The notes beneath the pieces were generated by a model, which was not told where the DNA came from, ran no database searches, and saw only the letters and a list, made by a program, of their open reading frames with translations. Of a stretch of DNA of 64,000 nt, positions 2,830 to 62,480 are shown one piece after another (the first letter of the stretch is position 1; the number at the start of each line of letters is the position of its first letter). Position numbers and translations under genes: made by a program. Location of the stretch: contig OY843592.1 of assembly GCA_963692865.2 (NCBI GenBank), positions 3,424,001 through 3,488,000 of the forward strand, written 5' to 3'. The stretch comes from a bacterium (GTDB lineage: Bacteria; UBA8248).

Positions 2830-2871
2830 ATTTTCTCCGATAAATCAAGCGCATAGGAGGCATTGCGAAAC

Positions 2872-45456: not shown

Positions 45457-45654
45457 CGTGAACGCTCACGGGTCGCGTCGCCACCCCCGGCGGCGCGGCC
45501 CTTCTTCACGCCTTCGTCCACTCCTCCCCGCATCGTTCCACTCGCTTCTTCCCGCTCACTCGCCGCGGCGGCTCCCGCTCACAATTCTCGCCGGCGAAAA
45601 TTCCCCCGTCGTTCGTTCCCACGGATTCGGCAATCTGACGCCCTTCGGCGGCTC

Positions 45655-45684
45655 GGGTTCTACACCGGACGCATCGCCGATGCG
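45655..45684 (-). other. oriT nic site of MOBF type (predicted nick between 45662 and 45661)
   Basis: Minus strand CGCATC-GGC-GATGCG-TCCGGTGT^AGAAC matches TGCGTnnnGTGT^ with a proximal hairpin, as in F, R100 and R388. Confidence 0.75.
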
Positions 45685-45775
45685 GGTGTCGTGGGGACTG
45701 CGAATGTCCTCGTTCCCCTGCGCCCCGCCTTTATGGATCATCCCCCCGCGCATCCCCGTCGCGTCGGGAAAAGTA

Positions 45776-45931
45776 ATACCAATCTGGTGGCATGCGAACT
45801 CTTTGAAATCCCTGCATTTAAGAGCGGCGTATGCTCTTTGTAATACGGTGTAACTCGGGGTGTTTCCTGCAGATACCAAATTGGTGGCGCTCAGTCCTGC
45901 GCTGCGCTATGATGAATACCGATTTGGTATC
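45776..45931. repeat. Three palindromic boxes ACC(A/G)AnnTGGT
   Basis: ACCAATCTGGT 45778, ACCAAATTGGT 45875, ACCGATTTGGT 45918. Confidence 0.6.
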
Positions 45932-46063
45932 GCTGGATTCCGGCATCGATTCGAGACCTTCCCAGTTCGCGACGAGTGTATTCGGCACAAAGAAAACCGG
46001 AATTTTCCGATCGTTTTGGATCGGAATCGATGAAAACCCTCACAAAAAGGAGCGGCAAAACGA

Positions 46064-46378
46064 ATGGTGCAGACGGCACAGAAGAACATCCGTTTCACAT
46101 CCGAACAGTGGAAACGCGTCGAAAAAGAGGCGCGAGAGCGGGGAATTTCGCCGAACCGGCTCGTGGTCGAGCTCACTATGGAGGGCCTGGAGCACCAAGA
46201 ATGGCCCCGCACGGAGACGGAAATCCACTTGCTTCGCTCCGCTATGTTCACCGCTCAGGCAATCATTCGCGACATGGAACGAGACGGAAGAGAGAAGGAA
46301 ATTGACCTAATCAGCCAAAATATTTCCGAAATCGCGCCCGAATTGCCTAGAAAATTGGCGAAGGGACAGAGTGATTAG
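46064..46378 (+). CDS. Ribbon-helix-helix-like protein, candidate relaxosome accessory factor
   Basis: KNIRF strand, helix, GISPNRLV helix; adjacent to oriT. Confidence 0.65.
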   Translation: MVQTAQKNIRFTSEQWKRVEKEARERGISPNRLVVELTMEGLEHQEWPRTETEIHLLRSAMFTAQAIIRDMERDGREKEIDLISQNISEIAPELPRKLAKGQSD

Positions 46379-46462
46379 ATTGAGTAGTGGTGCATAAAAT
46401 TGAGCGATTGACCGCAAGTTTGGTTTTATGGGTGACGTCTAGTTGTAGTTGTATTTCAAACT

Positions 46463-47368
46463 CTACCTTAAACCGGAAACTTTAACGGCTCCTAGAGCAT
46501 GATCATGCTTTCGACCAGATTCGAATCCCGTAAATCCTGGACGACGCAAGGTATTTCTTGTCGGATCATAATAAACACTCACAATTCCAGTAATAAGAAA
46601 TTGAAGTGCTAAATGTTCTTCGTTCTTACCATAGGTATGCCCAACGAACTTGGCTTCTTCAGGTGTACTTTTGGGTTCAGGGCGCTTTTTAAAGACGCTT
46701 CCACAATTGTTTATTACTCCGATAAACCCGATAACTTCGTCAAAGAGAGGTGCCGGAGAAGTAGGATATGCTGATGAAACCTTCTTGAAAACTGTTTTGG
46801 GCATATTCCTGGTGGAGTAGTTTTTCTGATAATCCATTCCGATGATCGCCAGATACGGACCACGCCTCGATTGCCCCTTGACATCAAGGCTCCTGCAAAG
46901 CTCCGCCGCTTTCCGGAGCGATTTGCACTCCGCATCGATATCCTTTGGTCGTAAAGTTTTCTTAACAGAAACTATGCCTACTACGCTTTCAGGTGGCACA
47001 ATCACGGCATCGACGAAGCGTTGAAAAACCGGATAACGAGCAGAATCGTACACGATGATATCTAGTTGGGTTGAATGTTCGTCTCGGTGACTTTTACGCT
47101 CCCGTCCATTTACACCGGTCTTCACAGCAGGACGAAGAATAAACCCCGAACTTACGGCCAAATCACCAGGCAGGAATTTATCTAAACAAGCCCGAACAAG
47201 CGACTCAACAAATCGACCATCCTCGCCGGGATGCCCAGCACCTTTTTGGTTTTGGGCGGGCACGAGCGTCTCGAATTGCCGATATGTAGCAAGCAGAGCA
47301 TTCACCTCTCGGGATAAATGTCCTCGAACTCTCACTCCATCCACCTGAATCTCCTTCTTCCCAGCCAA
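46463..47368 (-). CDS. DUF6602-like putative PD-(D/E)xK nuclease
   Basis: G..VE...R..L..FLP....SGFI, STQLDIIVYD, PPESVVGIVSVK. Confidence 0.7.
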   Translation of the reverse strand: MAGKKEIQVDGVRVRGHLSREVNALLATYRQFETLVPAQNQKGAGHPGEDGRFVESLVRACLDKFLPGDLAVSSGFILRPAVKTGVNGRERKSHRDEHSTQLDIIVYDSARYPVFQRFVDAVIVPPESVVGIVSVKKTLRPKDIDAECKSLRKAAELCRSLDVKGQSRRGPYLAIIGMDYQKNYSTRNMPKTVFKKVSSAYPTSPAPLFDEVIGFIGVINNCGSVFKKRPEPKSTPEEAKFVGHTYGKNEEHLALQFLITGIVSVYYDPTRNTLRRPGFTGFESGRKHDHALGAVKVSGLR

Positions 47369-47774
47369 TTTAAATGATGGGCAGACCCAGCCCTGAGTGA
47401 GCTGACAATTCTTCCATTTTTCCAGGGCCGTTTTAGCATATGGGAACCACTCTGCCGAGGTTTACAGATACAGGGCAAGATTCTGCGAAGTCTCAATTGT
47501 AAGTGGCCAGACATTAGTTAAACAGTTCGCTTTCGCCATAACAACTAAAAACGTGCAAACAAAACCCCCAGCATTTCTCGCCTGAAAAACCACTTAAAAA
47601 TACAGCGCATTTTAATCAGGTGTCGTTCTATGCGGAAGGGCGATCTTGATGAGGCGTTTGGTGGTCAATTGTTTCCCTAAAAGTTAGGACCAAGCATACG
47701 GTAAGACGTAATTAGGTATCCAAATAGGCCAAGAGGTGCATAACCTAGATTATAAAATCATCCATTCACGATAA

Positions 47775-48926
47775 TCACTGCGAAGCGTTTGCAGATATAT
47801 GCAAGGCATCAAATTGCGCCATCTCCCAAGCTTGATAGTCTTCCGTTGCTCGCCAAAATTCTTGCCAAGCGGAATTGAGAAGACTGGTGATAGGATTTAA
47901 CGCATCCGGTTTTGCTGTTACCAAACCGGCTCCCACGATACCTTCCTGTGCCGCCGTAACGATTTTGGACAGCAGATGATCCGGGTAAGCTTGACGATAT
48001 TCAGCCATTGGACGGTAGCCCATAACCCCAACAAAATCCTGCCAAGCCTGTTCAATCAGCTTCATTTCCGTATCGAAGCCGGTTATCGCCAGCATCATTA
48101 GCACCGTGCGCATTCTTGCATCATCTGCCGGGTGAGTTGACACGGACACTATAGGTGTTTCAAAGGGGTTGCCGCCACGTTTGACGCAAAGGTGATAGTG
48201 CGACCAAACAAATGCTGGGCCCACCATCAGCACGCCGAACAGGTCACAGAAAAATTCTTGCATCCAGAATTTGTCCCAACAAGTGCGCCATAGCTGAAGT
48301 TGGTAGAAAATACCCTCCGGCTTCCGCACACGTTCGGCAGATATGATTTCATTGCGGAAATGCCTTACCATTTCGAACCGGCTTCGCTTGTAGGCTGCAT
48401 GATACGATTCAAGCTTCGGAAGATTGGAATTTTGTTTCTGATGAAATGGATGACAGAGTTCGTGATAAATATCGGGAAGGTGAAGGAAGAACCGGCTCTC
48501 CATCAACGGTAAGCAAAGGAGATTGAATTCTCGATAGATATGAAAATAGTTTTGAGATGTATGGCTGACGACTGGAGGAATCAGGGGATAGTTGATTTCA
48601 CTGCAGATATTCGTGATCAAGCAGTTGAGAAAGTCATCATCTTGACTCACTCTGCTGAGGGCGTAAGCTCCAATGTTTTCAACAGTTTCGATTTGTTCCA
48701 CAATACGTTTGAACCCTCTCACTCGTAGAGGAGATTGAAGCGTTATATCGACTACTGTCTCCTGAGCGAGGTGCTGAAGAGCTGCCTGTGCAGCGTCGAG
48801 ACGAGTCAAACAAATTTGTCGCAAGCCGTCATATTCGCGGCGATATGGTTCTTGTACGATTTGTCGCAGTTGTCGTATCCGCTCCAGGGATTGTCCGATC
48901 GAGCCAATGAGATAGGTTTCGATCAT
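47775..48926 (-). CDS. HExxH zincin-like putative metallopeptidase
   Basis: YHELCH, downstream EFFCD, THP....R; TGATG overlap with the upstream gene. Confidence 0.7.
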   Translation of the reverse strand: MIETYLIGSIGQSLERIRQLRQIVQEPYRREYDGLRQICLTRLDAAQAALQHLAQETVVDITLQSPLRVRGFKRIVEQIETVENIGAYALSRVSQDDDFLNCLITNICSEINYPLIPPVVSHTSQNYFHIYREFNLLCLPLMESRFFLHLPDIYHELCHPFHQKQNSNLPKLESYHAAYKRSRFEMVRHFRNEIISAERVRKPEGIFYQLQLWRTCWDKFWMQEFFCDLFGVLMVGPAFVWSHYHLCVKRGGNPFETPIVSVSTHPADDARMRTVLMMLAITGFDTEMKLIEQAWQDFVGVMGYRPMAEYRQAYPDHLLSKIVTAAQEGIVGAGLVTAKPDALNPITSLLNSAWQEFWRATEDYQAWEMAQFDALHISANASQ

Positions 48927-49291
48927 CAACGCCTCCAGAGTCGGCGGGCAACCTTCACTCGTTCCTGTTCTAATCCTTGGGCGAGTTCCTCAAGCTGATG
49001 TATGTACGCTTGGTCCACCTCACCGTTCCGAAGTCGTTCACCTAGTTGTTTCAAGTTAGCTAAAGACTCACCCGTACTTGTCCTAAGCAGACTGTCTAGA
49101 GTTAATGCTTCGAGGCACTGAGACTTTAGCCCTTGATCACTCGCGTCGATAAAAAGCTGAGCCAGTTTCTTCTGATCCGGATCGGTCGGATCGGCCTCTC
49201 CCCGTCCCAGCCGTTCAATTACTCTGTCTATCAGAGCGCCGTATTCCTCGACATCGGCGTATACGCCAGTCAGTAAACTCAAATCGCTCAT
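48926..49291 (-). CDS. 121-aa helical hypothetical protein
   Basis: ATGA overlap with the Argonaute stop, GGAGAG RBS, Leu/Glu/Gln-rich. Confidence 0.75.
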   Translation of the reverse strand: MSDLSLLTGVYADVEEYGALIDRVIERLGRGEADPTDPDQKKLAQLFIDASDQGLKSQCLEALTLDSLLRTSTGESLANLKQLGERLRNGEVDQAYIHQLEELAQGLEQERVKVARRLWRR

Positions 49292-51666
49292 ATTGTGCTC
49301 TCCTGATGTTTGTCGTCGGGTTCAAATTCGATGGCGTCTTGATCGTATTCCACGGCTTCATCGAACAGGCTGCGATCGCAAAGTTTGACCGAAATTGGTA
49401 GACGCATCGCACCTTCCGGCCGGGTCCAAGTCAGACAACTGAGTGAAAAAACATCTGATAGGCATTGTTCCATCGACATAGCGCCAGCCGCCCGGCGGAT
49501 ATGTAGAGGGTTGGATGTGCCTGGAATTTGGAAGGGACGCCCAGTGGTGCAGACGTAGCCTTCGTTTGGAGCGGTAAGTGTCCAATGACCGACCATCGGA
49601 TTTTCGACCCAGAGCCCTTGCCCGTTTCTTGATGGTTTCACATCGAATAGCCGAAGCGGCACAGGTGCGGACTTGGATATCTCGACAACCGTGAGGTGCC
49701 AATCCTTTTCGAGATAACCGTCTTTTGCAAGACGTTCGCATGCCTCATTGAGACCTTCGACTTCCGCCGGCCAAGCGCGTCCATCTCGATGGACGACAAT
49801 CTGTTTCGGGCGTCGCTTGAAATTGGGTCCTTCCTTACACATGAGATCAATCACGAATTTTTCAACTTGGGTTTTAAGTAATTGCTCCTTCTGACGCGAT
49901 GGGCTCATGGTAAATCTGATAATCTTTCCACCATCGGCAATCAGAGTGAAGGCTGCGGTGTTATTCTTGACGTCAATCCCGATCACCACCTCCGCATATA
50001 ATGGTTTATCCAGGATGAACGGCCATTTCCCATTGGTGAGTAGAATCTTATTGAGCGCGACATTGCGTAGATAACCGGAGAAACGCTTGCGCTGGGTATC
50101 CTTTACGACGTAACGAGTCTCGCCCTTTCGCGTCACGCTCGTGTAGGTTTTCTTTGCCATATCCGTGTGGATTACAGCTGCGTTGAGTCCGAACTGAAGT
50201 GGAAACTCCTTCACCGTCCATGCTGCCAATTGATCGGCCGACCTTGGGCGACGCTCATAGCGGTGTACCATCACAAGCGCATATCCCGGTTTGACGTGGG
50301 TTGCGCATTCTACAGCCTTTTGAATCGCACGGGACTGTCCAACAAAATCCCGGCGATGATTGAGGTCGTCATAAGGAATCACTATAGGATCGTAGCTCCC
50401 GCCTTTGGGATAGAGGTCATCCACGTGCGATTTGAGGTCCATGAGAAACTGTGAACCATAGCTATTCATAACACTCTTGGGCAGCACGAGATATTGCCGA
50501 TCAAGGAGACTCTGCTCAAAAAACCCCGCATCTTTATCTTTCAAGAGACTCAATCTTCTTCGTCCATAATCTTTGAAGGCAACCGGCGCAATGCGCTGGT
50601 TCTTTTCAAACGACAGTGTCACGTCGTTGCCGAACCGCAGGGCGGGCAAAGAGAACGGCTTCGTTCTTGTCCGCCCCATCCGATCCGAAACCGAGAGAGT
50701 GACGTCACCGACCGGCACCTGACTTAGAAACATTTTAACGAGGCGCTTAATCTGACGGTGTCGACTATTGGGATCGATAACGGTCTTGGATTGATACTTA
50801 GCTCCCTCTTGGCCATGTGTGTCTTCAACTAGATAGCAAAGCTCTGCCGGGGCTGATCGTTGCTCCGGCCCATTGGTTCTATAGTAAATTGCGGCACCGT
50901 CCGGTGAGAGGTTCGCAATCGAGGCCGGCACGGGTTTCGGAGACTTTGTTTGCAGATAGTCCATCAAACTGACTGGTTTTCCTTCAAGTGGAATCGAAGG
51001 TTCGTTGACCCTCATATCAGCGAGCCCGGTGAGAGTGACCTCGAACCAACTATGACCCATTTTGTAGACGCATGAGCGGCCTTTTAGTTTGTTGATCTGT
51101 TCGCGCGTAGAGGAAACTGGGAGCGGCGATCTTGAGACAAGTTTCCGGCGAAGATCGACGTTGAGTCCGAACCCACCTTCCGGGTGTGTCATGACGCGTA
51201 TGGCGAAGCCCCCATAGAGGTCGACTACGCCGAATTGTTGCTCCGGTTTCTTGAAGAAAAATGGCTTACCTGCACCGGGCTGCCAGAGGCGCGAATCCTG
51301 AAAGAGCGGATCCTGAAAGATGAACTGGAGAAAACGCAGTCGAACAGGATCAAGTTCCGAGCGGTCTGGGCTGAAATCAAGCTCGACTTCATTTCCAGTG
51401 TCTTTTAATGAGGCGACGGTACCAACAAGCATGACATGATCTGGGGGGTCTCCGTAACCGGTTGGAACGACCAAAAGGGTCTCGCCCTCTATGTCCTGGG
51501 TCGTAACCGGCGCTTTCATGTTAAAGCTCAACCGGCGGACAAGCCGTTGCACATTACTATAGTATTCTGGAGTATCTCGTTGTAGACCAGCGATCTTGTA
51601 CAGTCGATATGTGGTACTTAATGCGTTTAAGCCGTCAATACGAAAGCAATTCGTTTCAATGGGCAT
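49288..51666 (-). CDS. ago: Long prokaryotic Argonaute with predicted intact DEDD tetrad
   Basis: About 790 aa; PIWI motifs IGIDV, KEQ, VHRDGR, EISK, GT..P, LPISVKLCD. Confidence 0.9.
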   Translation of the reverse strand: MPIETNCFRIDGLNALSTTYRLYKIAGLQRDTPEYYSNVQRLVRRLSFNMKAPVTTQDIEGETLLVVPTGYGDPPDHVMLVGTVASLKDTGNEVELDFSPDRSELDPVRLRFLQFIFQDPLFQDSRLWQPGAGKPFFFKKPEQQFGVVDLYGGFAIRVMTHPEGGFGLNVDLRRKLVSRSPLPVSSTREQINKLKGRSCVYKMGHSWFEVTLTGLADMRVNEPSIPLEGKPVSLMDYLQTKSPKPVPASIANLSPDGAAIYYRTNGPEQRSAPAELCYLVEDTHGQEGAKYQSKTVIDPNSRHRQIKRLVKMFLSQVPVGDVTLSVSDRMGRTRTKPFSLPALRFGNDVTLSFEKNQRIAPVAFKDYGRRRLSLLKDKDAGFFEQSLLDRQYLVLPKSVMNSYGSQFLMDLKSHVDDLYPKGGSYDPIVIPYDDLNHRRDFVGQSRAIQKAVECATHVKPGYALVMVHRYERRPRSADQLAAWTVKEFPLQFGLNAAVIHTDMAKKTYTSVTRKGETRYVVKDTQRKRFSGYLRNVALNKILLTNGKWPFILDKPLYAEVVIGIDVKNNTAAFTLIADGGKIIRFTMSPSRQKEQLLKTQVEKFVIDLMCKEGPNFKRRPKQIVVHRDGRAWPAEVEGLNEACERLAKDGYLEKDWHLTVVEISKSAPVPLRLFDVKPSRNGQGLWVENPMVGHWTLTAPNEGYVCTTGRPFQIPGTSNPLHIRRAAGAMSMEQCLSDVFSLSCLTWTRPEGAMRLPISVKLCDRSLFDEAVEYDQDAIEFEPDDKHQESTI

Positions 51667-52597
51667 GAGACTCCTCCCAGCAAATGCCGCGGAATGCACA
51701 GCGTTGGCAGGTTTCTGCGTGGACGGCGGACCGAAAATCACTAACACATAGATCGGTGTATTTGCTGCCTTCGGTCAAACAGGCAATTTCATAGGCAGAG
51801 CTAAGCATATATTCCTCTGCCTCTATGATTTGTTCTTTCTCAAGTGAGTGTTTCCTTACGACGTTAGTCAGGAGTTGGACTTCATAGAGCGCTGACTCTT
51901 GAGGTTGCATTTCAAAGCCACTTGGAAAATCTTTATGCGGCTTACAACGGCTGAGCGCGATGGCGTAGATTGCTAATTGTAGCCAGGCATCATTCGTGCC
52001 GAACGCATGAACTTTCCAGTCAATGATCGCTGGTGGAGCATCGTCCCGAAACGCAATCGCGTCTGGATAGGCGAGTACCGTCACGTCGTCCATTAACGTG
52101 AACTGAAGCGCACGCTGTGTGACGATGTAATCGGATGAAGCGAAGATGCATTTGATAGCGTCTGATGTAAATAGGTTAACCAGAGCTGTTTCAATCTCAC
52201 ACCATGCCTGCTCGATTTCATTCTCTGGAAGTTCGCCTTTGTATTCCATGGCGTGAAAGACTGCGAAATCATCTCCCTCCTTAGATACCTGCAGACTTAA
52301 ATCGTTGATTGGATGCCGCTTGGCATAGACTAGCTGCCGGTCGAATAAGGCACGGGCGCGAGTCTTTGCGTCTTTCAGTGTGATACGTAAGTCGCGGTTG
52401 AGATTCGGTATGAGCGTATTTGATATCACGGTATCGACGATTCTGCCGCGCCAAGCGCTGATACTTTGAAGTTTACCGAGTAAGTAGGCACGCTTTCGGA
52501 ATGAATCCTTAGCCTTTGGGCTTGCGGCGATGTTTTTGAAAAACCATTGCCGCTGACACTTCCGAAACGAGCGGCTTGCTGAATATGACCACCGCAT
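51656..52597 (-). CDS. Cas4/RecB-like PD-(D/E)xK nuclease with a four-Cys Fe-S staple
   Basis: SYS....KCQRQW, YPD, IIDWK, QLAIY, CQRCAFRGIC. Confidence 0.88.
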   Translation of the reverse strand: MRWSYSASRSFRKCQRQWFFKNIAASPKAKDSFRKRAYLLGKLQSISAWRGRIVDTVISNTLIPNLNRDLRITLKDAKTRARALFDRQLVYAKRHPINDLSLQVSKEGDDFAVFHAMEYKGELPENEIEQAWCEIETALVNLFTSDAIKCIFASSDYIVTQRALQFTLMDDVTVLAYPDAIAFRDDAPPAIIDWKVHAFGTNDAWLQLAIYAIALSRCKPHKDFPSGFEMQPQESALYEVQLLTNVVRKHSLEKEQIIEAEEYMLSSAYEIACLTEGSKYTDLCVSDFRSAVHAETCQRCAFRGICWEESHAH

Positions 52598-52956
52598 TAT
52601 TGCCTCCGCCTTCGCGACCGGATGAACTGCAGATATTCCACAAGCGCTTCCTCTTCTTCAGCTGTGACTGCACCAATGCGAGCGGCGAGAGTGTCAATAG
52701 TGAAGCGATGTTCGGCAGATTGAGCTACCGGGACCGGATAACCGGCAAGTTCCATCAAAAGCTCATAAGGTACGCGATATATCTCCGATAGCTTGTATAA
52801 ATTCTGTGGTGCTGGGGTTTTTATTTTCCCGTGCTCCAACTGGCTCAAATAGGCGCTTGATATCCCTGTTTCTTCTTCTACGGCCCGTAACGTAAGCTCT
52901 AGCTTGTTTCTTGTTGAGACCAGAAAGATTCCGAGTTTGTCTTTGGATTCTGACAT
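52597..52956 (-). CDS. XRE-family HTH repressor (CapH-like)
   Basis: LTLRAVEEETGISSAYLSQLEHG; C-terminal EEEEALVEYLQFIRSRRRR; TAATG overlap with the nuclease. Confidence 0.88.
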   Translation of the reverse strand: MSESKDKLGIFLVSTRNKLELTLRAVEEETGISSAYLSQLEHGKIKTPAPQNLYKLSEIYRVPYELLMELAGYPVPVAQSAEHRFTIDTLAARIGAVTAEEEEALVEYLQFIRSRRRRQ

Positions 52957-52963
52957 AATGCTA

Positions 52964-52992
52964 AATATATTTATTGTTGCTAAATTTGTCAA
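52964..52992 (-). promoter_or_regulatory. Sigma70 promoter of the Argonaute operon, probably leaderless
   Basis: TTGACA-17-TATATT, then 7 nt to ATG at 52956 with no SD. Confidence 0.75.
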
Positions 52993-53078
52993 GCAAATTT
53001 TTGACTCCCACCTGAGAGTTCCTCTATCCGGTTATTCCTTTTGATTTCGTTTGGATGGGGACTTGTGTCGGTATCTTG

Positions 53079-53138
53079 CCGATTCCGGGAGTCAATCAAC
53101 GAATCCTGTGCTAGATGCACATACCGGGCCATGGTCTC
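53079..53138 (-). pseudogene. Eroded relic of an integrase 3' end
   Basis: Translates ETMARYVHLAQDSLIDSRNR versus ETTARYAHLARDSVRESAER in integrase 2 (12/20 identical). Confidence 0.55.
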
Positions 53139-53432
53139 GCCATTATTTAATCAAGTAACGGTCAAGTTCTTTTCCTTCGCCCACCACGGCACATATCACA
53201 TCAACCTTGGACCGATGGGATCGTTAAGCATGACAATACCTTCATCATTAGTTCCTGCGACCGGCCGCAAAACCTGCGCGCTGTTGTGTGTCTCGATACA
53301 AAATCGTCCGCACACACCTGGGGTGTGTGTGCTCGAAAGAACGAGGAATTGGCTTCAGGTTCGGGTACTAGGTAAGCACCAGAACAGTGGTTATGAGAAT
53401 TAATTGCGCAAAGGATTTAAAAATGATACTTT

Positions 53433-54242
53433 ATGCGCATGAAAATAAAATCACATCGCCTACATGCCAAAGATTATATCAGAGACCTTCTTGCTGCCGG
53501 GCGCTATCATTTTACTTCGAGTGACGCTCGCAAGGCGCTTGGCGTGTCTGCGGACGCCGCCAAACTTGCTCTGAACCGCCTAGCCCGGCAGAATATAATC
53601 GCTCAGCCCGCCCGGGGTTTCTACGTCATTGTCCCGCCAGAATACCGCTCTCTGGAATGTCTGCCTGCGGATCAGTTCATCCCCGCATTGATGCAGCGGC
53701 TCGGGCAGCCCTACTATTCCGGGTTGCTTTCCGCCGCACAATACTACGGTGCGGCTCATCATCGACCGCAGGAATTCCAGGTGTTGCTCGTTAAGGCACG
53801 CCGGCCGATCCATTGCGGCCGGGTGCGCGTGATCTTCATCGTCCGCAAGCGCCTCTGGAATGTCTCCGTGCAAACCTTCAACACCCCTCGCGGCACGATC
53901 CGGGTCTCTACACCGGAAGCAACGGCCGTGGACCTCGTCGGCTATTACCACCACGTGGGTGGGCTCGACCAGGTGGCGACCATCCTCTCCGAACTTGAAG
54001 AGCAGATCGATCCGGAAAAATTGGTGACGGCCGCGCAGAACGCGCCGATTACGTGGGCGCAGAGGCTTGGATACCTGCTTGAGCTTGTCAATGCCCACGA
54101 ACAGATCGTTCCTCTGAAAGCCTATGTCAAGAATGAAGCCCGGCGAACGGTTCCGCTTTTCCCAGCTACATCATCCGAAGAAGCGCCTCGCGATGCGAAC
54201 TGGAAACTTTTCATCAACGCCGACGTGGAGCCGGACCTATGA
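53433..54242 (+). CDS. abiEi: Type IV TA antitoxin, AbiEi family
   Basis: wHTH N-terminus, GFYVIVPPEY, LLSAAQYYGA, STPEATAVD, QRLGY. Confidence 0.88.
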   Translation: MRMKIKSHRLHAKDYIRDLLAAGRYHFTSSDARKALGVSADAAKLALNRLARQNIIAQPARGFYVIVPPEYRSLECLPADQFIPALMQRLGQPYYSGLLSAAQYYGAAHHRPQEFQVLLVKARRPIHCGRVRVIFIVRKRLWNVSVQTFNTPRGTIRVSTPEATAVDLVGYYHHVGGLDQVATILSELEEQIDPEKLVTAAQNAPITWAQRLGYLLELVNAHEQIVPLKAYVKNEARRTVPLFPATSSEEAPRDANWKLFINADVEPDL

Positions 54243-55060
54243 TCCCGCGCGACTATATCACTGAGTGGAGGGCGCAGGTGCCGTGGGTGCAGGATTTCCA
54301 GGTCGAGCAGGATCTCGTCATCAGCCGGGCGTTGATTGCGATTTTCAATCACCCGCTCCTCAAAGAAGTGCTGGCCTTCCGAGGCGGTACGGCGCTTTAC
54401 AAACTCCACATTCATCCTCCGGCACGCTATTCGGAGGACATCGACCTTGTACAGCTCAGGGCCGAGCCAGCCGGGCCGATGATGAACGCGGTTCGGGAAG
54501 TGCTCGATCCCTGGCTTGGGAAACCGCAATACAAACAGACCGAAGGACGAGTGACCTTCAGTTATCGCTTCCAATCCGAGGATGTGCCGCCTCTTCAACT
54601 CCGACTGAAAGTGGAAATCAATTCGCGGGAACACTTTGCGGTCTACGGATACACGCGCCTGCCGTTCACAGTCTCTTCACGCTGGTTCGAGGGTAGTAGC
54701 GAGATCGCTACTTACGCGCTTGAGGAGTTGCTAGCCACCAAACTCCGCGCCCTCTATCAACGTCGTAAAGGCCGCGACCTTTTTGACCTTGCGGTCGCAC
54801 TTGAGGAATCGGTGATCGATCCGGATCGGGTCATTTTAGCGTTTTCGAAATATATGGAGCGAGGTGGTCACGACGTGACGCGCGCCCGGTTTGAGCAGAA
54901 CATCGAAGCGAAGCTGCGCGACCCACAGTTCAATGCCGATATCGGCCCGCTTCTCGCCACCGGGTTTTCCTGGGACGGCGAAGAGGCTGCGGCAACCGTC
55001 CGTTCCAGACTTATCGCGCGATTGCCAGGCGAGCCATGGAAGGGCGGCAACAGGGCCTAG
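54239..55060 (+). CDS. abiEii: Nucleotidyltransferase toxin, AbiEii family
   Basis: FRGGTAL, RYSEDIDL, K..A..QR.K.RD.FD; ATGA overlap. Confidence 0.9.
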   Translation: MIPRDYITEWRAQVPWVQDFQVEQDLVISRALIAIFNHPLLKEVLAFRGGTALYKLHIHPPARYSEDIDLVQLRAEPAGPMMNAVREVLDPWLGKPQYKQTEGRVTFSYRFQSEDVPPLQLRLKVEINSREHFAVYGYTRLPFTVSSRWFEGSSEIATYALEELLATKLRALYQRRKGRDLFDLAVALEESVIDPDRVILAFSKYMERGGHDVTRARFEQNIEAKLRDPQFNADIGPLLATGFSWDGEEAAATVRSRLIARLPGEPWKGGNRA

Positions 55061-55347: not shown

Positions 55348-56451
55348 TCACTTGATGCTGATGAATCTGGCAAACGACCGATCACTCTGTTCGTATCGTG
55401 AGAGCGGTAACAACTGCTTGGGTCTAAAATCGGAAAGCCATTGAAACAGAAGACAGTGGCTCACTATCATAAGTTTTAGTGACACTTTCCAATGTGGTGC
55501 AAGTTTAGAGTTCATCATTACAGAAGAGTTTGCGCTGAGCGGCATGACCACTCTTTTGGCAGTCAAGGCCCTTACGGGATAGAGCAGGATCAGGATGTTG
55601 TAGGTCGTATCAAACGCTTCAGCGATACACTCGTGCTGCTCGCCGTTCATGTCGGCAATCGGGAGTAAAACGGGTTTTGTCATTTTGCGGCCAATTGGAA
55701 GCACCTGCCATAGAAAATGATCTGGTGTGACTACATCGATAGAAGGTCGCCCGAATTGAGCAAGAAAAGCGGGCGAGGGTTCAATTCGTCGCACAGGCGC
55801 CTGGAACCCGGAACCTTTAATTTTTTCCAGCGGTTCAAGAACAAAAACGACGCACGCTCTCTGGTTGGTTCGGGCAAATTCGCGAGTGGAGGCATAAACC
55901 GAAGCCCCGAATGTCTTGGCGAGTTTGATCGGTGTCTTGATCTCGAATGGACAATCGGCGGCGTATTCGGCAAAGGTGCTGCCTTTGAATAGCACAAACC
56001 GCGCATAGTTGTTGGCTTCACGCTCAAATTGGTCGGCGACCTCGGGCTCTAGAGTCCTTTTGCAGTCCTGGAAGAATTGAAACATCTTGCGATGGGTCGG
56101 CATATCGTGGTGCCCGGTTTCATGGAGCTTGAGAAAGGTCTGTTTTGATTCGACCACGGAATTATCGATATGGATGGCGGCATCACCGGCATCGTAAAGT
56201 CCGAATACCTTGGTTATCGCCGACTTGATACGAACACTCGTGTCGACAGTCTTGGTTTTAAGGTAAGAGAGTAAGGCTACGGGGTCGAAAATGTTAGTGG
56301 GAACAATATGGACCTTTGCCGCGGCAAGAATATCGTCGATCGGGACTGGGAACCGATCCCAGGCTTCCGCGCGGTCGAGAAGTTGTCGGGCTCGCCCCTC
56401 GACCACGCGTAGATCATCCGGGTCGAGAGCGCTGTCATCTGGTTTTGTCAC
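55348..56451 (-). CDS. ImmA/IrrE-family metallopeptidase (CapP-like)
   Basis: FLKLHETGH, EREANNYA, HTH LAKTFGAS, GAF-like C-terminus; overlaps the XRE gene. Confidence 0.85.
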   Translation of the reverse strand: MTKPDDSALDPDDLRVVEGRARQLLDRAEAWDRFPVPIDDILAAAKVHIVPTNIFDPVALLSYLKTKTVDTSVRIKSAITKVFGLYDAGDAAIHIDNSVVESKQTFLKLHETGHHDMPTHRKMFQFFQDCKRTLEPEVADQFEREANNYARFVLFKGSTFAEYAADCPFEIKTPIKLAKTFGASVYASTREFARTNQRACVVFVLEPLEKIKGSGFQAPVRRIEPSPAFLAQFGRPSIDVVTPDHFLWQVLPIGRKMTKPVLLPIADMNGEQHECIAEAFDTTYNILILLYPVRALTAKRVVMPLSANSSVMMNSKLAPHWKVSLKLMIVSHCLLFQWLSDFRPKQLLPLSRYEQSDRSFARFISIK

Positions 56452-56803
56452 GTCTCCGCCTCCTGCTACGTAAGAACTCAAGGTACTCCAGCAACTCGGA
56501 TTCCTCCTCCGGCGTCAAATTGTACTCGGCGAATGTTGCCATCCGGCCGTGTGGGTCATCGTTTGAACGTTTGGCTGACGACATGAGATAGCCGGCCCTG
56601 TCCATGAGGTTCTCGAAGCTGACGGCGTAGGTCTCGGCCAGGGTATGAAGGATGTTGGGCGAGGGTTTTTGGATTTTGTTGTTTTCGATTTGGCTGAGAT
56701 AGGCGTTCGATACCTGCTTGTTGGTTGCTTCCTCGACTTCGCGCAGTGTCATTTTGCGATCTGTACGAATTGAAGCGAGGTATTGTCCTAATGTCAGCTT
56801 CAC
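56435..56803 (-). CDS. XRE-family HTH repressor (CapH-like)
   Basis: MTLREVEE...SNAYLSQIEN; LTPEEESELLEYLEFLRSRRR; GGAGGG then GTG. Confidence 0.9.
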   Translation of the reverse strand: MKLTLGQYLASIRTDRKMTLREVEEATNKQVSNAYLSQIENNKIQKPSPNILHTLAETYAVSFENLMDRAGYLMSSAKRSNDDPHGRMATFAEYNLTPEEESELLEYLEFLRSRRRRRDKTR

Positions 56804-56866
56804 GATGATCCCCTCCATTGCAGGACGGTCAAAGATTCAATCTCCGGAGATGAGCTTGTAGTTAGA

Positions 56867-56946: not shown

Positions 56947-56994
56947 CACTCTTGGGCCATGGTGGCGCAGAGATTTTCTGTTTAGGAGAAAACT

Positions 56995-57351
56995 ATGGAA
57001 ATATCGGAAAAACCTGAACTGGTGCAGGACGAGATCGATGAGTCAGGCGTGGAAATTGTCCTTGATGACATTATCGACCTCGAGGAATACGCGAAGCTTG
57101 GGAAACGCCCACCGCTGGCGAAGGGTTATCGCATCAAAATCAATGGTGACTCCTATGTCGTCCACGATCCGACGCCGACGGGCCGTGAGGTGCTGACCCT
57201 CGCCGGTTTGTTACCGGCGAAAGATTATACGCTCCGGGTTAAGCTCGCTGGTGAAAAGCCGAGGAAGGTGGAGCTTGACGAAAAGGTTGATCTCCGTCAC
57301 CGAGGCGTCGAAAAATTCAAGGCGTTGCCGCGAGATCAGACGGAAGGTTAA
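56995..57351 (+). CDS. Multiubiquitin-domain ubiquitin-like protein (BubA-like)
   Basis: Beta-grasp pattern YRIKING...TGREVL.LAG...VDL...GVEKF; ends QTEG. Confidence 0.85.
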   Translation: MEISEKPELVQDEIDESGVEIVLDDIIDLEEYAKLGKRPPLAKGYRIKINGDSYVVHDPTPTGREVLTLAGLLPAKDYTLRVKLAGEKPRKVELDEKVDLRHRGVEKFKALPRDQTEG

Positions 57352-57355
57352 TGCA

Positions 57356-57757
57356 TTGGTCCTTCGTCATCAGTTCGACTTGTTACCGCAAGACGAAGAG
57401 TTCCTGAAGGAGTACGGCCACCCCTGGGAGACCATCATCGATGGCTCCCAATGGGTGCTGATCCACGAGTTCCCAACCCACGAAGGGTACAATCACCCAT
57501 GTGTGACGGCGGCAATCCGAATGGAAACGGGATATCCGAACACGGAATTGCAAATGGTCTACTTCTTCCCGGCCTTGGCCCGCAAAGATGCCAAGATGAT
57601 CGGCGCAACCCAGGCTACGCAGACGATTGACGGGAAGAAATATCAACGCTGGTCGCGTCACCGTACTCCAGAAAATCCGTGGAGAGTCGGTCTCGACTTT
57701 TTGGACACGCATGTCATTCTGATTGAGGATTGGCTCGCACGGGAGTTTGAGAAATGA
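57356..57757 (+). CDS. Prokaryotic E2/UBC-like protein (BubB-like, Ser at predicted active site)
   Basis: D.EFL..Y...WE, GYN, GYP...L.M.YF.P, QRWSRH; start tentative (TTG 57356). Confidence 0.8.
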   Translation: MVLRHQFDLLPQDEEFLKEYGHPWETIIDGSQWVLIHEFPTHEGYNHPCVTAAIRMETGYPNTELQMVYFFPALARKDAKMIGATQATQTIDGKKYQRWSRHRTPENPWRVGLDFLDTHVILIEDWLAREFEK

Positions 57758-59169
57758 CCGTACCGATAAACCTTTCATTTTCAGGTGATCAGCATGAGCA
57801 TCTTAGAAGCTTCCTGTTTCCGGGCGACGGAAAGGAAGCCGTTGCTCTTCTCTTATGTGGCCGCCGCGCGGGTGATCGACGTGAGCGCCTCGTCGTCCGA
57901 GAGGTCCATGACATACCCTATGATTTATGCTCTGAACGCACTGCCACGCTCGTAACTTGGCCACCTGATTATATTGCGCCGCTACTCGATCGGGCGGCCG
58001 ATAAAGGCTTTTCAGTAATCAAAGTGCACAGTCACCCGAGCGGTTACTCTGCATTTTCTGCGACCGATGATGAAAGCGATGCTCGTCTGCTGCCGATATT
58101 CCGGGGCTGGGTCGAAGCGGATATTGCGCATGGCAGCGCTGTTATGCTTCCCGACGGGAAAATGTTCGGGCGCGTACTTCGTTCTGGCACTTCACTGGAG
58201 CAGATCAGCTGTATCAGCGTCGCAGGCGATGATCTTCATTTCTGGTACGCAGACACGGATAATGTGGAAGCACCAAGCTTCGTCGCTTCTCATGCGCAGA
58301 TCTTCGGCGAGGGCACGATTGAGCGGCTGCAACGTTTGTCGATAGCAGTCATTGGTGCTTCGGGCACCGGCAGTCCAGTTATCGAGCAATTGATTCGGTT
58401 GGGCGTAGGGGAGCTCGTAATTGTCGACGACGACCACATGGAAGACCGTAATGTCAATCGTATTTTGAATTCTACTGTGAAGGATGCGGCAGAAAAACGA
58501 CTCAAGGTCGACGTTCAGACGGACGCGATTGAACGGGCAGGTCTGAAGACCCGGGTGATCCAGATAGACCGAAATCTCTGGAATCCCGATGTCATTCGTG
58601 CCGTAGCGCAATGCGACGTTCTGTTCGGATGCATGGACAGCATTGATGGGCGTTTTTTGTTGAACACTCTGGCTACGCATTACACTTTGCCATACTTCGA
58701 TATTGGAGTAAGACTCCAAGCAGTACCGTTCGGGCCGGACATGGGACGTATTCGCGAGGTTTGCGGCACGGTCAACTATCTACGTCCGGGGAGGTCGAGC
58801 TTAATAAGTCGAGGCCTCTTCACGATAAGCGAAGTGGCTGCCGCGGGCTTGCGGCGCAACGATCCAGATGCGCACGATCAACAGGTGAAGGACGGTTACA
58901 TCGCAGGAGTAGCCGTACAACGCCCCGCAGTGATCAGTGTCAATATGTTCGGCGCTTCTCTCGCGGTCAATGAGTTTCTGGCGCGGCTTCACCCGTTTCG
59001 GGAGGAACAAAATCACAACTACGCCGCTGTTACGTTCAGTCTCGCGAGTATGGAATTGATCCCGGACCCGGAGGAAGGCATCTGCGAGATCATGGCTAAG
59101 AATGTAGGAAGGGGTGACGTTAAGCCACTTCTCGGGTTGCTGGAGCTGGCGGAAAGGCATGGAGCGTGA
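57754..59169 (+). CDS. JAB peptidase - ThiF/E1 adenylyltransferase fusion (BubCD-like)
   Basis: E...HSHP...FS..D JAB motif; VIGASGTGS, DDD....NVNR, GCMD. Confidence 0.88.
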   Translation: MTVPINLSFSGDQHEHLRSFLFPGDGKEAVALLLCGRRAGDRRERLVVREVHDIPYDLCSERTATLVTWPPDYIAPLLDRAADKGFSVIKVHSHPSGYSAFSATDDESDARLLPIFRGWVEADIAHGSAVMLPDGKMFGRVLRSGTSLEQISCISVAGDDLHFWYADTDNVEAPSFVASHAQIFGEGTIERLQRLSIAVIGASGTGSPVIEQLIRLGVGELVIVDDDHMEDRNVNRILNSTVKDAAEKRLKVDVQTDAIERAGLKTRVIQIDRNLWNPDVIRAVAQCDVLFGCMDSIDGRFLLNTLATHYTLPYFDIGVRLQAVPFGPDMGRIREVCGTVNYLRPGRSSLISRGLFTISEVAAAGLRRNDPDAHDQQVKDGYIAGVAVQRPAVISVNMFGASLAVNEFLARLHPFREEQNHNYAAVTFSLASMELIPDPEEGICEIMAKNVGRGDVKPLLGLLELAERHGA

Positions 59170-59531
59170 CACGGCTGCGCTGCTTCGTCAGGCGAGTTTG
59201 GAAGTGGGCCGTGCATCGGTTCGTCCGCCCCTACCGAATGTTGGTTGTCGAAGAAACATTACCGGAGCGACTTGAGCGGCGCATCCTATACATAGTGCGT
59301 GAAGACGGGTTCAACGAGCAGGCTGCGTTGCTGTGTCCATGTGGTTGCGGTTCTATTCTCCACATTAACTTGCTACCCGATGAATACCCTTGCTGGCGTG
59401 TGACGCAGAATATCGATGGGACGGCGACACTCTACCCGTCGGTTTGGCGGAAAAAGGGCTGCGGCTCGCATTTTTGGCTCCGGAATGGTCACATCCAATG
59501 GTGTCAGGTAGCGAAACTATCTGCGCACTAA
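59166..59531 (+). CDS. DUF6527 family protein
   Basis: CPCGCG, TLYPSV, CGSHFWLRNG; GTGA overlap. Confidence 0.82.
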   Translation: MTRLRCFVRRVWKWAVHRFVRPYRMLVVEETLPERLERRILYIVREDGFNEQAALLCPCGCGSILHINLLPDEYPCWRVTQNIDGTATLYPSVWRKKGCGSHFWLRNGHIQWCQVAKLSAH

Positions 59532-60125: not shown

Positions 60126-62480
60126 ATGAAGATTTGCACGGAAGATGTTCAGGCGGAAGTTTCGTTGGTCGAGAGGCCGGATGACCCACGGCCTCATCCC
60201 CCCGGGTTGCCCGCAACCGCAGAGGCGTACTGGCGTTCGCTGTACGAGCGGGAGCGTGCGCGCGCGGAGGCTGCGGAGGCGCGCTGCGAGGAGTTGCGGT
60301 GGAAGGAAGCCGATTCCCGCTCCCGTGCGGGCAGGCTGAAGCGGCAGTACGACAAGTGCCGGAAGAAGCTCGAGGCGGCCGCCGGGGAGGCGAAGGAAGC
60401 CCGCCGCGCGGCGAAGGACGCGCTGTCGCTCAAGGCGGAAGTGGAGCGGCTGGAGAAGCTGCTCGCGGAAGCGGGGGTCGAGCCGCGCAAGCGCAGCCCG
60501 CTCATGTCGTTGCGCATGGAGGTCGTCCGGCTTCGCAAGGAGCTCTCGGGCGTGCCGTCGCCGGGAGAGGCGGAGCGGGTGCGCAAGGCCCTGGAGGAGC
60601 GCAGGGAGACGATTCGCGCCCTGCGCAAGGAGGCCGGCCGGCGGGAGAAGGAGATTGTCCGGCTGGAGGAAGGATTGGCCCGGGAGAAGCAGAAGTCGGC
60701 GGCTCACAAGGAGACCATCCGGGAACTGGACGAGGAGGCCATCGGGCTCTACAGGAAGTTGCGGCGATTGCGCGACCAGGCGGAGGTGGTCGAGTCGTTG
60801 TCCGCGGAGGTCTACCGTCTTAAAGTCTCCCTCGGTGCTGCGGACATCGCCAGGGAACGGCTGAAGGCGCGGCTGTTGCGCGCGATGGAGGCGGCGCGCT
60901 CGAGGCCGCCGTCGCGTGGGGACGAGGAACTGCGCAAGGCCCTGGGGAGGTCGCGTCGTCAGAAGACGGCGCTCAGGTCGCTGTCCCGGGAGAACGCCCG
61001 GCTGTCCAGAGCGCTCCGCAGGTCGGAGACCCGCCGGGCACGGCTGGAGGCCGAACTCGCGAAGCTTCGCGCCACCGGAGCGGCGCTGGCGAAGAGGCTG
61101 TTCGGGCGCAAGAGCGAGCGGCAGGAGAAGCCGCGCTCGGACCGCAGGCGCGGCGGGCAGCCCGGCGCCCGGGGCCACGGGCGGACTCCCCGGCCCGCGC
61201 TCGATGAGAAGACCGAAGTCCGCAACCCGCCGGCCGATGCGCGCGTCTGCCCCTGTTGCGGGCAGCCCTACGCGGCCAACGGCGCACGTGTATCGAGCAT
61301 TATCGAGATCGAGGTCTCGGCCCACAAGCGCGTCATCCACCGTCCGAGGTGGCGGCGGGGGTGCGAATGCGCATCGTCTCCCGCCGAAGTGTCGGCGCCG
61401 CCCGCGCCGCGCCTGTTCGCGGGTACGCCTTACGGGACGAGCGTGTGGGCGCTCTTCCTGTTCGAGCGCTACGCCTGCTTCCGTCCGCTGCGCCGGGTCG
61501 CCGCGTGGCTCTCCGACCAGGGGCTCCCGATCTCGGCGGGCACGCTGGGCGACAGCATGCACCGGTTCACGCCGCTGTTCGAGCCGCTGGCCGGGGCGAT
61601 CCTCTCCCGCCAGAACGAGGCGGCGCTGCGCCACGGGGACGAGACGACCTGGCGCATACAGTCGCTTCGCGAGCAGGGACGCTCGAGCCGCGCCTGGCTG
61701 TGGACGTCGGTCAGCACGGACTCCGTCTACTTCCACGTCGACCCCTCGCGGTCTGCTGAGGTCGCGATGAAGCTCTTCGGCGCGTCCGGCCGCCATACGG
61801 TCCTCGTCTGCGACCGCTACAGCGCCTACAAGAAGCTGGCGCGCGAACTCGACGGCGCCGTAATCCTGGCCTTCTGCTGGTCGCACCAAAGAAGAACCAT
61901 CATCGACTGCGCCGCCGGCGAGGAGCGGCTGACGCCGTGGGGCGAGAGATGGATCGGGCGGATTGCGAAGCTCTACCGCCTGAACGATGCGCGCCTGGCC
62001 CGTTACGACCCGGGCGCCGAACGACAGGGCGCGGCGTTCGACGCGGCGCAGACTGCGCTCGAGAAGGCGCTCGATAGCCTGTTCACGCAGGCCCAAAGTG
62101 AACTGGCCGCCTTGCCGGCGCAGGCGCCCGAGGGCAAGGCGCTTCGCTCGCTGCTGAACCACCGCGAGGGGCTGAGCGTCTTCCTCGAGCGCCCATGGGT
62201 GCCTATGGATAATAACCAATCGGAGAGATTGCTTCGGGGTCCCGTGATCGGCAGACGCCTCTCGTTCGGCTCCGACAGCGAGGCCGGCGCCCGGTTCACG
62301 GCGATGATGTACTCCGTCCTCGGTACGCTCTCGTTAAACGGCATCGACCCGCTCCGCTGGCTCGATGCATGGCTCACGGCCTGCGCGGAGGGCGGCGGCC
62401 GGGCGCCCGGTGACATCTCGTCCTGGCTGCCCTGGTCGATGAGTGAGGAGCGCAGGCGCGCCCTCAAGGCGCCGGGATGA
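60126..62480 (+). CDS. IS66 family DDE transposase with a long N-terminal coiled coil
   Basis: LFGRKSE, CPCCG zinc ribbon, HGDET, CDRYSAY, CWSH, DNNQSERLLR. Confidence 0.93.
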   Translation: MKICTEDVQAEVSLVERPDDPRPHPPGLPATAEAYWRSLYERERARAEAAEARCEELRWKEADSRSRAGRLKRQYDKCRKKLEAAAGEAKEARRAAKDALSLKAEVERLEKLLAEAGVEPRKRSPLMSLRMEVVRLRKELSGVPSPGEAERVRKALEERRETIRALRKEAGRREKEIVRLEEGLAREKQKSAAHKETIRELDEEAIGLYRKLRRLRDQAEVVESLSAEVYRLKVSLGAADIARERLKARLLRAMEAARSRPPSRGDEELRKALGRSRRQKTALRSLSRENARLSRALRRSETRRARLEAELAKLRATGAALAKRLFGRKSERQEKPRSDRRRGGQPGARGHGRTPRPALDEKTEVRNPPADARVCPCCGQPYAANGARVSSIIEIEVSAHKRVIHRPRWRRGCECASSPAEVSAPPAPRLFAGTPYGTSVWALFLFERYACFRPLRRVAAWLSDQGLPISAGTLGDSMHRFTPLFEPLAGAILSRQNEAALRHGDETTWRIQSLREQGRSSRAWLWTSVSTDSVYFHVDPSRSAEVAMKLFGASGRHTVLVCDRYSAYKKLARELDGAVILAFCWSHQRRTIIDCAAGEERLTPWGERWIGRIAKLYRLNDARLARYDPGAERQGAAFDAAQTALEKALDSLFTQAQSELAALPAQAPEGKALRSLLNHREGLSVFLERPWVPMDNNQSERLLRGPVIGRRLSFGSDSEAGARFTAMMYSVLGTLSLNGIDPLRWLDAWLTACAEGGGRAPGDISSWLPWSMSEERRRALKAPG

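Follow-up and report, generated by a model that had tools for sequence, protein, structure and literature searches.

In a 64,000-nucleotide stretch of bacterial DNA (here called the window; GTDB lineage UBA8248, contig OY843592.1, positions 3,424,001 to 3,488,000), the gene for a long prokaryotic Argonaute (pAgo) is followed by two minus-strand genes encoding a protein of 121 amino acids (aa), p121, and an HExxH protein, p384, and comparison of related loci indicates that the DNA-guided, RNA-cleaving (D-R) pAgos of the PliAgo and PnyAgo groups have this pair as a constant accessory module. The evidence supports the assignment of p384 to an undescribed and unannotated branch of the gluzincins (clan MA(E)), and what is new, as judged from sequence, would be an unannotated gluzincin family within a known kind of system, the pAgo defense systems. 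We propose, with slightly less than even confidence, that p121 tethers p384, acting as a soluble zinc peptidase, to pAgo and that the output of the assembly may be like that of the type III-E Craspase.

Linkage of the gene pair to RNA-cleaving Argonautes

The earlier note on this DNA had placed the two open reading frames (ORFs) in an operon with a pAgo and an XRE regulator, and profile matches bear this out. The 819-aa ORF matches the PADLOC profile pAgo_II (PDLC02382; E = 0) and PDB entries 7r8f to 7r8k, titled "Argonaute" and presumably PliAgo structures (E ~1e-210), in both cases from residue 28. The product of the first gene matches HTH_19 and HTH_3 of Pfam and, weakly, the PADLOC capH profile (4.4e-5), and that of the second gene matches Aga_Cas4-like_Nuc of PADLOC (PDLC02406; E = 2.9e-124) and PDDEXK_1 of Pfam. 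Genes for pAgo_II and Aga_Cas4-like_Nuc in one operon are the combination by which PADLOC recognizes pAgo class II; in the window the two genes are adjacent and overlap, and on these matches the window operon is a member of that class and of the PliAgo/PnyAgo D-R pAgo operons. The motifs GIDVK, HRDG, and KLCD occupy the positions of the tetrad residues that Lisitskaya et al. (2022; PMC9360449) give for PliAgo, and with its DEDD-type tetrad motifs intact the window pAgo is predicted to be catalytically active.

In that paper, pAgos of the PliAgo group are described as DNA guided and RNA cleaving, a helix-turn-helix (HTH) regulator and a Cas4-like nuclease accompany them as they do in the window, a sigma-70 arrangement is given for the second group, PnyAgo, and the natural role of such pAgos is posed as an open question in the discussion. 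The biochemistry in the available sections of the cited papers on these pAgos concerns the Argonaute by itself, and the accessible text and three supplementary files of PMC9360449 make no mention of the two genes downstream of pAgo. The PADLOC model for pAgo class II consists of two genes, the 121-aa and 383-aa genes being unnamed there; RefSeq plasmid records label both as "hypothetical protein," and our literature searches returned no report of a metalloprotease or peptidase linked to pAgo.

We compared the best 80 of 421 metagenome-contig stretches that encode relatives, together with two named genomes; these 82 loci represent 66 clusters at 95% nucleotide identity. A pAgo match lies directly upstream in all 71 loci with at least 500 nucleotides (nt) of upstream sequence, 313 to 439 nt from the p384 start, and a full-length pAgo is present in 43 of the 44 loci with at least 2,900 nt upstream. 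In the exception (L036, positions 1 to 3170), pAgo has been cut by IS66-like and mutator-like transposase genes, with p121 and p384 intact; in another locus (L001, 4263 to 7612), pAgo is split over several frames, and assembly errors are possible. In 72/82 loci, the p384 start coincides with the end of an ORF of at least 70 aa, and of the 10 misses, 9 have less than 225 nt of upstream sequence and the tenth, L046, looks broken. The Cas4-like nuclease was found in 39/39 loci and the XRE gene in 37/39, the exceptions being L048 and L056. Genes downstream of p384 vary and mostly face the other strand, no conserved sixth gene was found there across the related loci, and p384 thus ends the operon.

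p384 and pAgo also diverge in step: over 43 loci, which are not independent of one another, their identities to the window copies are correlated with an r of 0.98. Among 72,556 plasmid records, pAgo and p384 occur in the same 5, and the single genome with pAgo_II among 401 in the phylum of L002, which is not the window's phylum, is the one with a full-length p384. The p384 gene is absent from all 50 further genomes searched in the phylum to which the window belongs, which fits its acquisition together with a low-GC island, and a search of 2.9 million viral contigs yielded no p384 relative, in keeping with a cellular origin.

The plasmid-borne operons are of three types. Emticicia oligotrophica pEMTOL01 and a Spirosoma oryzicola plasmid encode a sigma-70 factor, a 180-aa protein, a Cas4-like nuclease, pAgo_II, a protein of 128 to 132 aa, and a p384 relative (26 to 28% identity; the Emticicia pAgo_II match is to PDLC02383, E = 1.7e-215); Rhizobium and Runella plasmids carry XRE operons; and on a cyanobacterial plasmid, genes for a nuclease, pAgo, a 145-aa protein, and a p384 relative stand together without a regulator beside them. 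The catalytic residues discussed below are invariant in these plasmid-borne relatives of p384. The pair is found in sigma-70-type operons too and thus goes with the RNA-cleaving pAgos of both groups, irrespective of the kind of regulator. The cyanobacterial 145-aa protein is homologous to p121 (hhalign probability of 85%, E = 5.9e-6); for the Emticicia 128-aa protein, the hhalign probability is 8.5%. The approximately 180-aa protein encoded after the sigma factor (L093, 2362 to 2904; L096, 904 to 1449) is conserved, appears to be soluble, with no transmembrane segment (maximum hydropathy of 1.18 and 0.88), and matches no family; it is a candidate anti-sigma-like partner.

The same patterns bear on the suggestion, made in the earlier note, of a toxin-antitoxin output. 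On such an explanation, a toxic p384 would be restrained by p121, and the two would form a self-contained abortive-infection pair that hitchhikes with pAgo. A small acidic protein encoded just upstream, with overlapping stop and start codons, is the typical antitoxin-toxin order; distant relatives of p384 occur in small-protein/HExxH modules with another effector-like gene, and the island contains other abortive-infection or toxin-antitoxin systems (AbiE). However, in none of the pAgo-type relatives examined does the pair stand alone, whether at the 71 loci with enough upstream sequence or on the five plasmids; p384 identity follows pAgo identity, no relative turned up on the viral contigs searched, and the in-frame fusion described below ill fits a labile antitoxin, so that we hold this explanation to be very unlikely.

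p384 as a putative gluzincin

Both minus-strand ORFs exist as the earlier note described them, and the motifs to which it drew attention in the HExxH protein are present and conserved in all 50 homologues aligned: HELCH at residues 156 to 160, EFFCD at 225 to 229, and a THP....R segment, THPADDAR, at 265 to 272. These homologues are 22 to 71% identical to the window protein, and their invariant columns are E84, H156, E157, H160, E225, D229, G237, H266, P267, R272, and W355. The HExxH residues (H156, E157, and H160) are kept in 50/50 homologues, in 10/10 sequences when distant relatives are included, and in 7/7 of a further set; E225 and D229 of the ExxxD motif, which lie on a helix of the model spanning residues 205 to 236, are invariant in all three alignments, distant relatives included. 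The catalytic residues are also kept in relatives of 24 to 26% identity and in still more distant ones.

The spacing of HExxH, ExxxD, and H-x5-R equals that of neprilysin (His583-Glu584-His587, Glu646-Asp650, and His711-Arg717), for which the account in PMC7822871 gives Glu646 as the third zinc ligand, Asp650 as a member of an Asp-His-zinc triad, His711 as stabilizing the transition state, and Arg717 as binding the substrate backbone and Asp650. From this spacing and the fold class, we infer that the p384 residues share the same roles: H156, H160, and E225 would be the zinc ligands, E157 would act as the general base in peptidase activity, D229 would orient a histidine ligand, and transition-state stabilization and contact with the substrate backbone would fall to H266 and R272. 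Inactive zincin-like subunits exist in other families, Nepl15 being an example given in PMC7822871, and p384 might on that precedent be a purely structural subunit of a pAgo complex; however, every catalytic residue is invariant across 22 to 71% identity and beyond, a pattern expected under selection for catalysis and not for a scaffold, and we consider such a role extremely unlikely.

In the AlphaFold2 model of the whole protein (pLDDT of 97.3), the helical N-terminal region seen in the earlier note is a three-helix bundle (residues 1 to 94), followed by a catalytic domain (95 to 383) with a small sheet (120 to 139), the HExxH helix (153 to 163), and a helical lower part. The claim that p384 has no obvious transmembrane segments likewise stood: none was found (highest 19-residue Kyte-Doolittle mean of 1.41), and p384 is predicted to be soluble. 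Three-helix bundles filled the VIA-align list obtained with the whole model, and the catalytic domain (95 to 384) was therefore folded alone, with a pLDDT of 97.1. When this domain was compared with 48,161 chains, 12 had a Z of at least 5, and all 12 are zinc peptidases or are so titled. PepO 4iuw (7.5, over 174 aa), Zmp1 3zuk (7.5), BepA 6sar (7.3), and PepO 9kn2 (7.0) head the list; they are followed by ZMPSTE24 6bh8 (7.0), neprilysin 4cth (7.0), ECE-1 3dwb (6.8), and the Haemonchus H-gal-GP complex 6row (6.7), which we take to be neprilysin-like, and then by 3c37 (6.4), Ste24p 4il3 (6.0), abylysin 4jiu (5.3), and 4l7a (5.0). The fold class agrees with the invariant motifs, which supports the gluzincin assignment; the model thus predicts for p384 a gluzincin zinc peptidase fold of the thermolysin-like zincin type, and the gluzincin/M48-like arrangement proposed in the earlier note is now accompanied by a full signature and by fold matches to M13 and M48.

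The best structural matches (Z of 6.0 to 7.5) come from M13 (neprilysin, ECE-1, PepO, and Zmp1) and M48 (Ste24/ZMPSTE24, BepA, and HtpX-like), which share with p384 the HExxH and ExxxD motifs and a later His/Arg pair at the neprilysin spacing. p384 differs from both in being apparently cytosolic, in its length of 383 aa, in having its own N-terminal three-helix bundle, and in having no membrane anchor. The M13 alignments cover the catalytic half alone (174 to 183 residues), and p384 is without the second domain of the two-domain M13 architecture of approximately 650 to 700 aa. M48 peptidases are membrane or periplasmic proteins, with transmembrane segments or a signal peptide, a feature that p384, helical and soluble in the model, does not share.

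The family is large and unannotated. Relatives of p384 number 340 among 90%-identity clusters, with complete ones of 377 to 411 aa that are called "hypothetical protein" where named; among 50%-identity representatives, there are 596 at an E of ≤0.001, 371 at ≤1e-10, and 138 at ≤1e-30. The Pfam, NCBIfam, PADLOC, and PHROGs libraries contain no matching family, and even at an E of ≤0.1 the window protein is without a Pfam match. None of the 50 family members matches the Peptidase M48 profile (PF01435) at an E of ≤10 or the Pfam profiles of Peptidase M13; 3/50 match Peptidase_M78 weakly (best E of 7.7e-4), below the Pfam cutoff, and the window p384 matches neither PF06114 nor the PADLOC capP profile. 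A search of the ESM Atlas led to unnamed clusters and to Peptidase_U49 and Peptidase_M48 at 0.78 to 0.79, which we used as a lead only, and a PDB sequence search with the family profile returned only coiled-coil proteins, via the N-terminal bundle. Two members, P0134 and P0141, carry a C-terminal CHAT caspase-like domain; in a third, P0149, an additional domain that contains another HExxH motif is attached, and in L079 (5887 to 7020) this domain is encoded by a separate gene downstream.

p121 and its fusion to Argonaute

The 195 relatives of p121 are 96 to 142 aa in length. In an alignment of 44 sequences, the N terminus (MSxxGLYSGLY..R.YAELxD) and a helix-like segment toward the C terminus (LExLAxxLExERA...RxRG) are conserved, and the region between them varies; the composition of the family (Leu, 15.8%; Ala, 9.2%; Arg, 8.1%; Glu, 7.4%; Pro, 2.1%) is compatible with a helical protein. 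p121 is acidic (pI of 4.8), whereas pAgo is basic (pI of 9.2). No family was found for p121 in Pfam, NCBIfam, PADLOC, or PHROGs, and the ESM Atlas gave no match; matches to DUF2017 (E = 0.015) and amphi-Trp (E = 0.072) were subthreshold and were set aside. Ubiquitin-like processing of p121 was also considered and rejected as a required feature: a C-terminal [RK]x[RKH]G motif is present in 33/44 tails, and the window tail, RRLWRR, is without it.

At three sets of loci (L068, L078/L080, and L081/L082), p121 is fused in frame to the C terminus of pAgo, and in L082 (4197 to 6998), the result is a single pAgo-p121 ORF of 933 aa. Three different fusion sequences are represented, in two groups with 74% nucleotide identity to each other; a search for p121 fusions among longer proteins returned none, which is weak evidence, the search being word based and the fused clade only ~31% identical. 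Because such in-frame fusions occur naturally, we take p121 to sit on pAgo, and the fusion is the best available evidence for this putative location. Translational coupling and co-occurrence point, in turn, to possible binding between p121 and p384.

Proposed mechanism and its alternatives

We suggest that a single, translationally coupled transcript would give rise to all five proteins of the operon and that p121 would dock on the free, disordered C-terminal tail of pAgo and hold p384, probably through the N-terminal three-helix bundle of the latter. DNA guides would be supplied by the Cas4-like nuclease, and the binding of invader RNA by guide-loaded pAgo would switch on the tethered peptidase, which would then cut a protein substrate; candidates are p121, the transcription regulator, and a host protein. 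Recognition of RNA would thus be converted into a proteolytic signal or growth arrest, as with Craspase in type III-E CRISPR.

The analogy is with a system comprising gRAMP/Cas7-11 with TPR-CHAT/Csx29, Csx30, Csx31, and RpoE, in which, as set out in PMC9825189, the CHAT protease is bound to Cas7-11, is switched on by target RNA, and then cuts Csx30, a protein that binds RpoE. Both systems would combine a guide-dependent, RNA-targeting nuclease with a protease, a transcription factor, and small accessory proteins; the transcription factor of the pAgo operons is sigma-70 (PnyAgo type) or XRE (window), and the CHAT domain of two p384 relatives adds to the likeness. They differ in that the nuclease of the window is an Argonaute with DNA guides and not Cas7-11 with CRISPR RNA (crRNA) and in that p384 is a predicted zinc gluzincin, whereas the Craspase protease is a cysteine, caspase-like CHAT enzyme; there is no sequence homology between any of the accessory genes, and the relationship would be one of functional analogy, not of membership.

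Several observations weigh against this proposal. A pAgo with an intact DEDD-type tetrad cuts RNA without any effector, so that by logic no effector is required. The fusion clade retains the internal ATG of p121, and separate translation is therefore possible. The structural matches are modest, with a best Z of 7.5, a root mean square deviation of ~4 Å, and 12 to 14% identity, and the tool itself warns that VIA-align Z values below 8 can reflect merely a common arrangement; Foldseek found nothing at an E of ≤0.001 with the whole model in the PDB and BFVD or with the domain model in the PDB. Finally, distant relatives of p384 occur without pAgo in a three-gene module (L090, 6527 to 9032; L091, 6339 to 8661; L092, 5977 to 8532) that encodes a small protein of 144 to 152 aa, an HExxH protein of 413 to 474 aa, and a dCTP-deaminase-like protein (PF22769), which means that the peptidase fold is not intrinsically pAgo dependent, and in one such relative H266 has been replaced.

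The three distant relatives keep HExxH, E225, D229, P267, and R272, the module has no PADLOC match, and its small proteins have no detectable homology to p121 (hhalign probability of 0.04%). The trio may be an undescribed defense module, and its existence suggests a wider superfamily of modules in which a small protein and a zincin are placed on different immune components.

A more specific version of the tethering proposal, an "Argonaute Craspase" in which the p121-tethered peptidase would be activated by RNA and would cut p121 or the regulator (XRE or the sigma-70 partner) with a transcriptional or growth-arrest response, is tentative and on the unlikely side. It borders on an alternative, raised in part by the earlier note, in which p384 is a regulatory protease that cleaves the operon's own regulator (XRE or the 180-aa anti-sigma-like protein) and so derepresses the operon upon infection, in the manner of CapP/CapH, ImmA/ImmR, IrrE/DdrO, and BlaR1/BlaI. 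The first operon gene is CapH-like and 38 to 52% identical to the neighboring CapH-like gene family (tblastn), there is no CapP at most loci (one lies directly upstream only in L014 and L082), and the 180-aa soluble protein could be the equivalent substrate in sigma-70-type operons; the weak M78 matches and the presence of PprI/IrrE 8sln among the fold matches (Z of 4.1) point the same way. Yet the M78 matches are subthreshold and missing from the window p384, whose fold is nearer to M13 and M48, and no recognized HTH gene lies beside the three dCTP-deaminase-linked relatives. The pair also persists without XRE in L048 and L056 and in the sigma-70-type operons of the Emticicia and Spirosoma plasmids, and without an adjacent regulator on the cyanobacterial plasmid, so that the idea of the earlier note, cleavage of the operon's XRE in place of a CapP, cannot describe the general role of p384. 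L014 and L082 hold a true CapH-CapP pair and nevertheless keep p384, and the window's own CapH/CapP-like pair faces the ubiquitin-like system described below and not the pAgo operon, which weakens the idea further. The window thus shares with the CapP/CapH, ImmA/ImmR, and IrrE/DdrO systems an HExxH metallopeptidase and an XRE/CapH-like repressor in a defense operon, but here the peptidase gene is the last one and not next to XRE. Since regulatory cleavage would also leave p121 and its fusion to pAgo unexplained, we judge it unlikely; a broader version, with XRE or a sigma-factor partner as the substrate, overlaps the Craspase-like model and is a live rival.

Alternatively, p384 might be a guide-biogenesis or housekeeping helper with no signaling output, which would clear the DNA or RNA of an invader of bound proteins (terminal proteins, single-stranded DNA-binding protein, or cross-linked proteins) or process pAgo or the nuclease for guide making. 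DNA guides must come from the invader, by a route left open in the discussion of PMC9360449, the pair travels with the Cas4-like nuclease at 39/39 loci, and ArdC 6sna (Z of 4.0) and the DNA-protein-cross-link protease entry 6mdx (Z of 3.5) appear low in the fold list. The best fold matches, however, are oligopeptidases and chaperone-proteases of the M13 and M48 types and not SprT or ArdC types, the profile libraries reveal no nucleic acid-binding domain in p384 or p121, and p121 is acidic; we regard a helper function as quite unlikely and place it, with the toxin-antitoxin and scaffold roles, among the less likely explanations. A related comparison is APACE1, in which a long-A pAgo and ACE1, a Cas4-family nuclease, resemble the window in that an active long pAgo is encoded together with a nuclease of the Cas4 family that helps to provide guides; APACE1 differs in being a two-gene, DNA-targeting system, and its description in the available text of PMC12094033 includes no peptidase or small adaptor.

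Operon layout and the surrounding island

The coordinates of the five genes and of their neighbors are collected in Table 1.

Table 1. Genes of the pAgo operon and neighboring features of the island (window coordinates)
Feature	Position	Strand	Remarks
XRE/CapH-like helix-turn-helix regulator	52597..52992	-	ORF of 131 aa; operon gene 1; likely start ATG 52956
Argonaute-associated Cas4-like PD-(D/E)XK nuclease	51656..52597	-	ORF of 313 aa; operon gene 2
Long pAgo, PliAgo group	49288..51666	-	Likely start ATG 51666; ORF of 819 aa open to 51747
p121, proposed pAgo-p384 adaptor	48926..49291	-	121 aa, ATG start; operon gene 4
p384, putative soluble gluzincin-like zinc peptidase	47775..48926	-	383 aa; final operon gene
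DUF6602/NucC-like PD-DExK protein	46463..47368	-	400 nt downstream of p384
AbiEi antitoxin and AbiEii nucleotidyltransferase toxin	53433..55060	+	Between pAgo operon and CapH/CapP-like pair
CapH-like XRE and CapP-like M78 peptidase	55348..56818	-	127 aa and 377 aa (HETGH; PADLOC capP, 1.1e-11)
Ubiquitin-like conjugation system	56995..59531	+	Multi_ubiq, 118 aa; Prok-E2_E, 168 aa; JAB+ThiF E1 fusion, 471 aa; DUF6527, 121 aa
IS66-family transposase	60126..62480	+	At edge of low-GC island (45500 to 60000)

At all four junctions of the operon, the stop and start regions of neighboring genes overlap: TAATG joins XRE and the nuclease, the pAgo ATG lies 10 nt ahead of the nuclease stop with GGAGG in front of it, and ATGA joins pAgo and p121. 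The p384 ORF as listed (47775..48929, 384 aa) begins at TTG 48929; ATG 48926 stands behind GGAGG and has one base in common with the p121 stop (TGATG), the junction reading ...CTCTGGAGGCGTTGATGATC..., and is for these reasons the likely start. The resulting 383 aa are also the length of P0001, a database protein identical to p384. A promoter scan found a promoter-like element, TTGACA-17-TATATT (11/12 matches), at 52992..52964, on account of which the regulator probably starts at the downstream ATG given in Table 1. On this layout, the XRE, Cas4-like nuclease, pAgo, p121, and p384 genes form one translationally coupled operon; it lies within an island of 47 to 54% GC in a genome of ~72% GC.

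The DUF6602 gene occurs in none of the 82 related loci and is thus a separate gene of the island, outside the unit. The CapH/CapP-like pair, 2.4 kb from the pAgo operon, is divergent from the ubiquitin-like operon and therefore probably regulates that operon and not the pAgo operon; the C-terminal tail of its CapH-like XRE, EYLEFLRSRRRR, resembles the tail of the XRE of the pAgo operon. A similar ubiquitin-like system is encoded right after the p384 homologue on the Runella plasmid pRUNSL03, and in L048 the gene immediately upstream of the Cas4-like one encodes a JAB-ThiF fusion; the proximity of such systems to pAgo operons could reflect a recurrent defense-island neighborhood or a functional link.

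Implications

Every such operon examined encodes, in addition to its Argonaute, a conserved protein that resembles an adaptor and another that resembles a zinc peptidase and has its catalytic residues intact, and the question of the role of these pAgos can now be turned into concrete experiments on a defined five-gene unit. The p384 family, with 596 clusters at 50% identity, is an unannotated gluzincin branch of interest independently of any role with pAgo. The known outputs of Argonaute systems are NADases, nucleases, and membrane effectors, and if p384 is controlled by target recognition, proteolysis would be added to them, and a programmable, DNA-guided, RNA-triggered protease could become available for sensing. 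Should the Craspase-like model prove true, an Argonaute system would for the first time have a protease as its output, and RNA-activated proteolysis would have arisen here independently.

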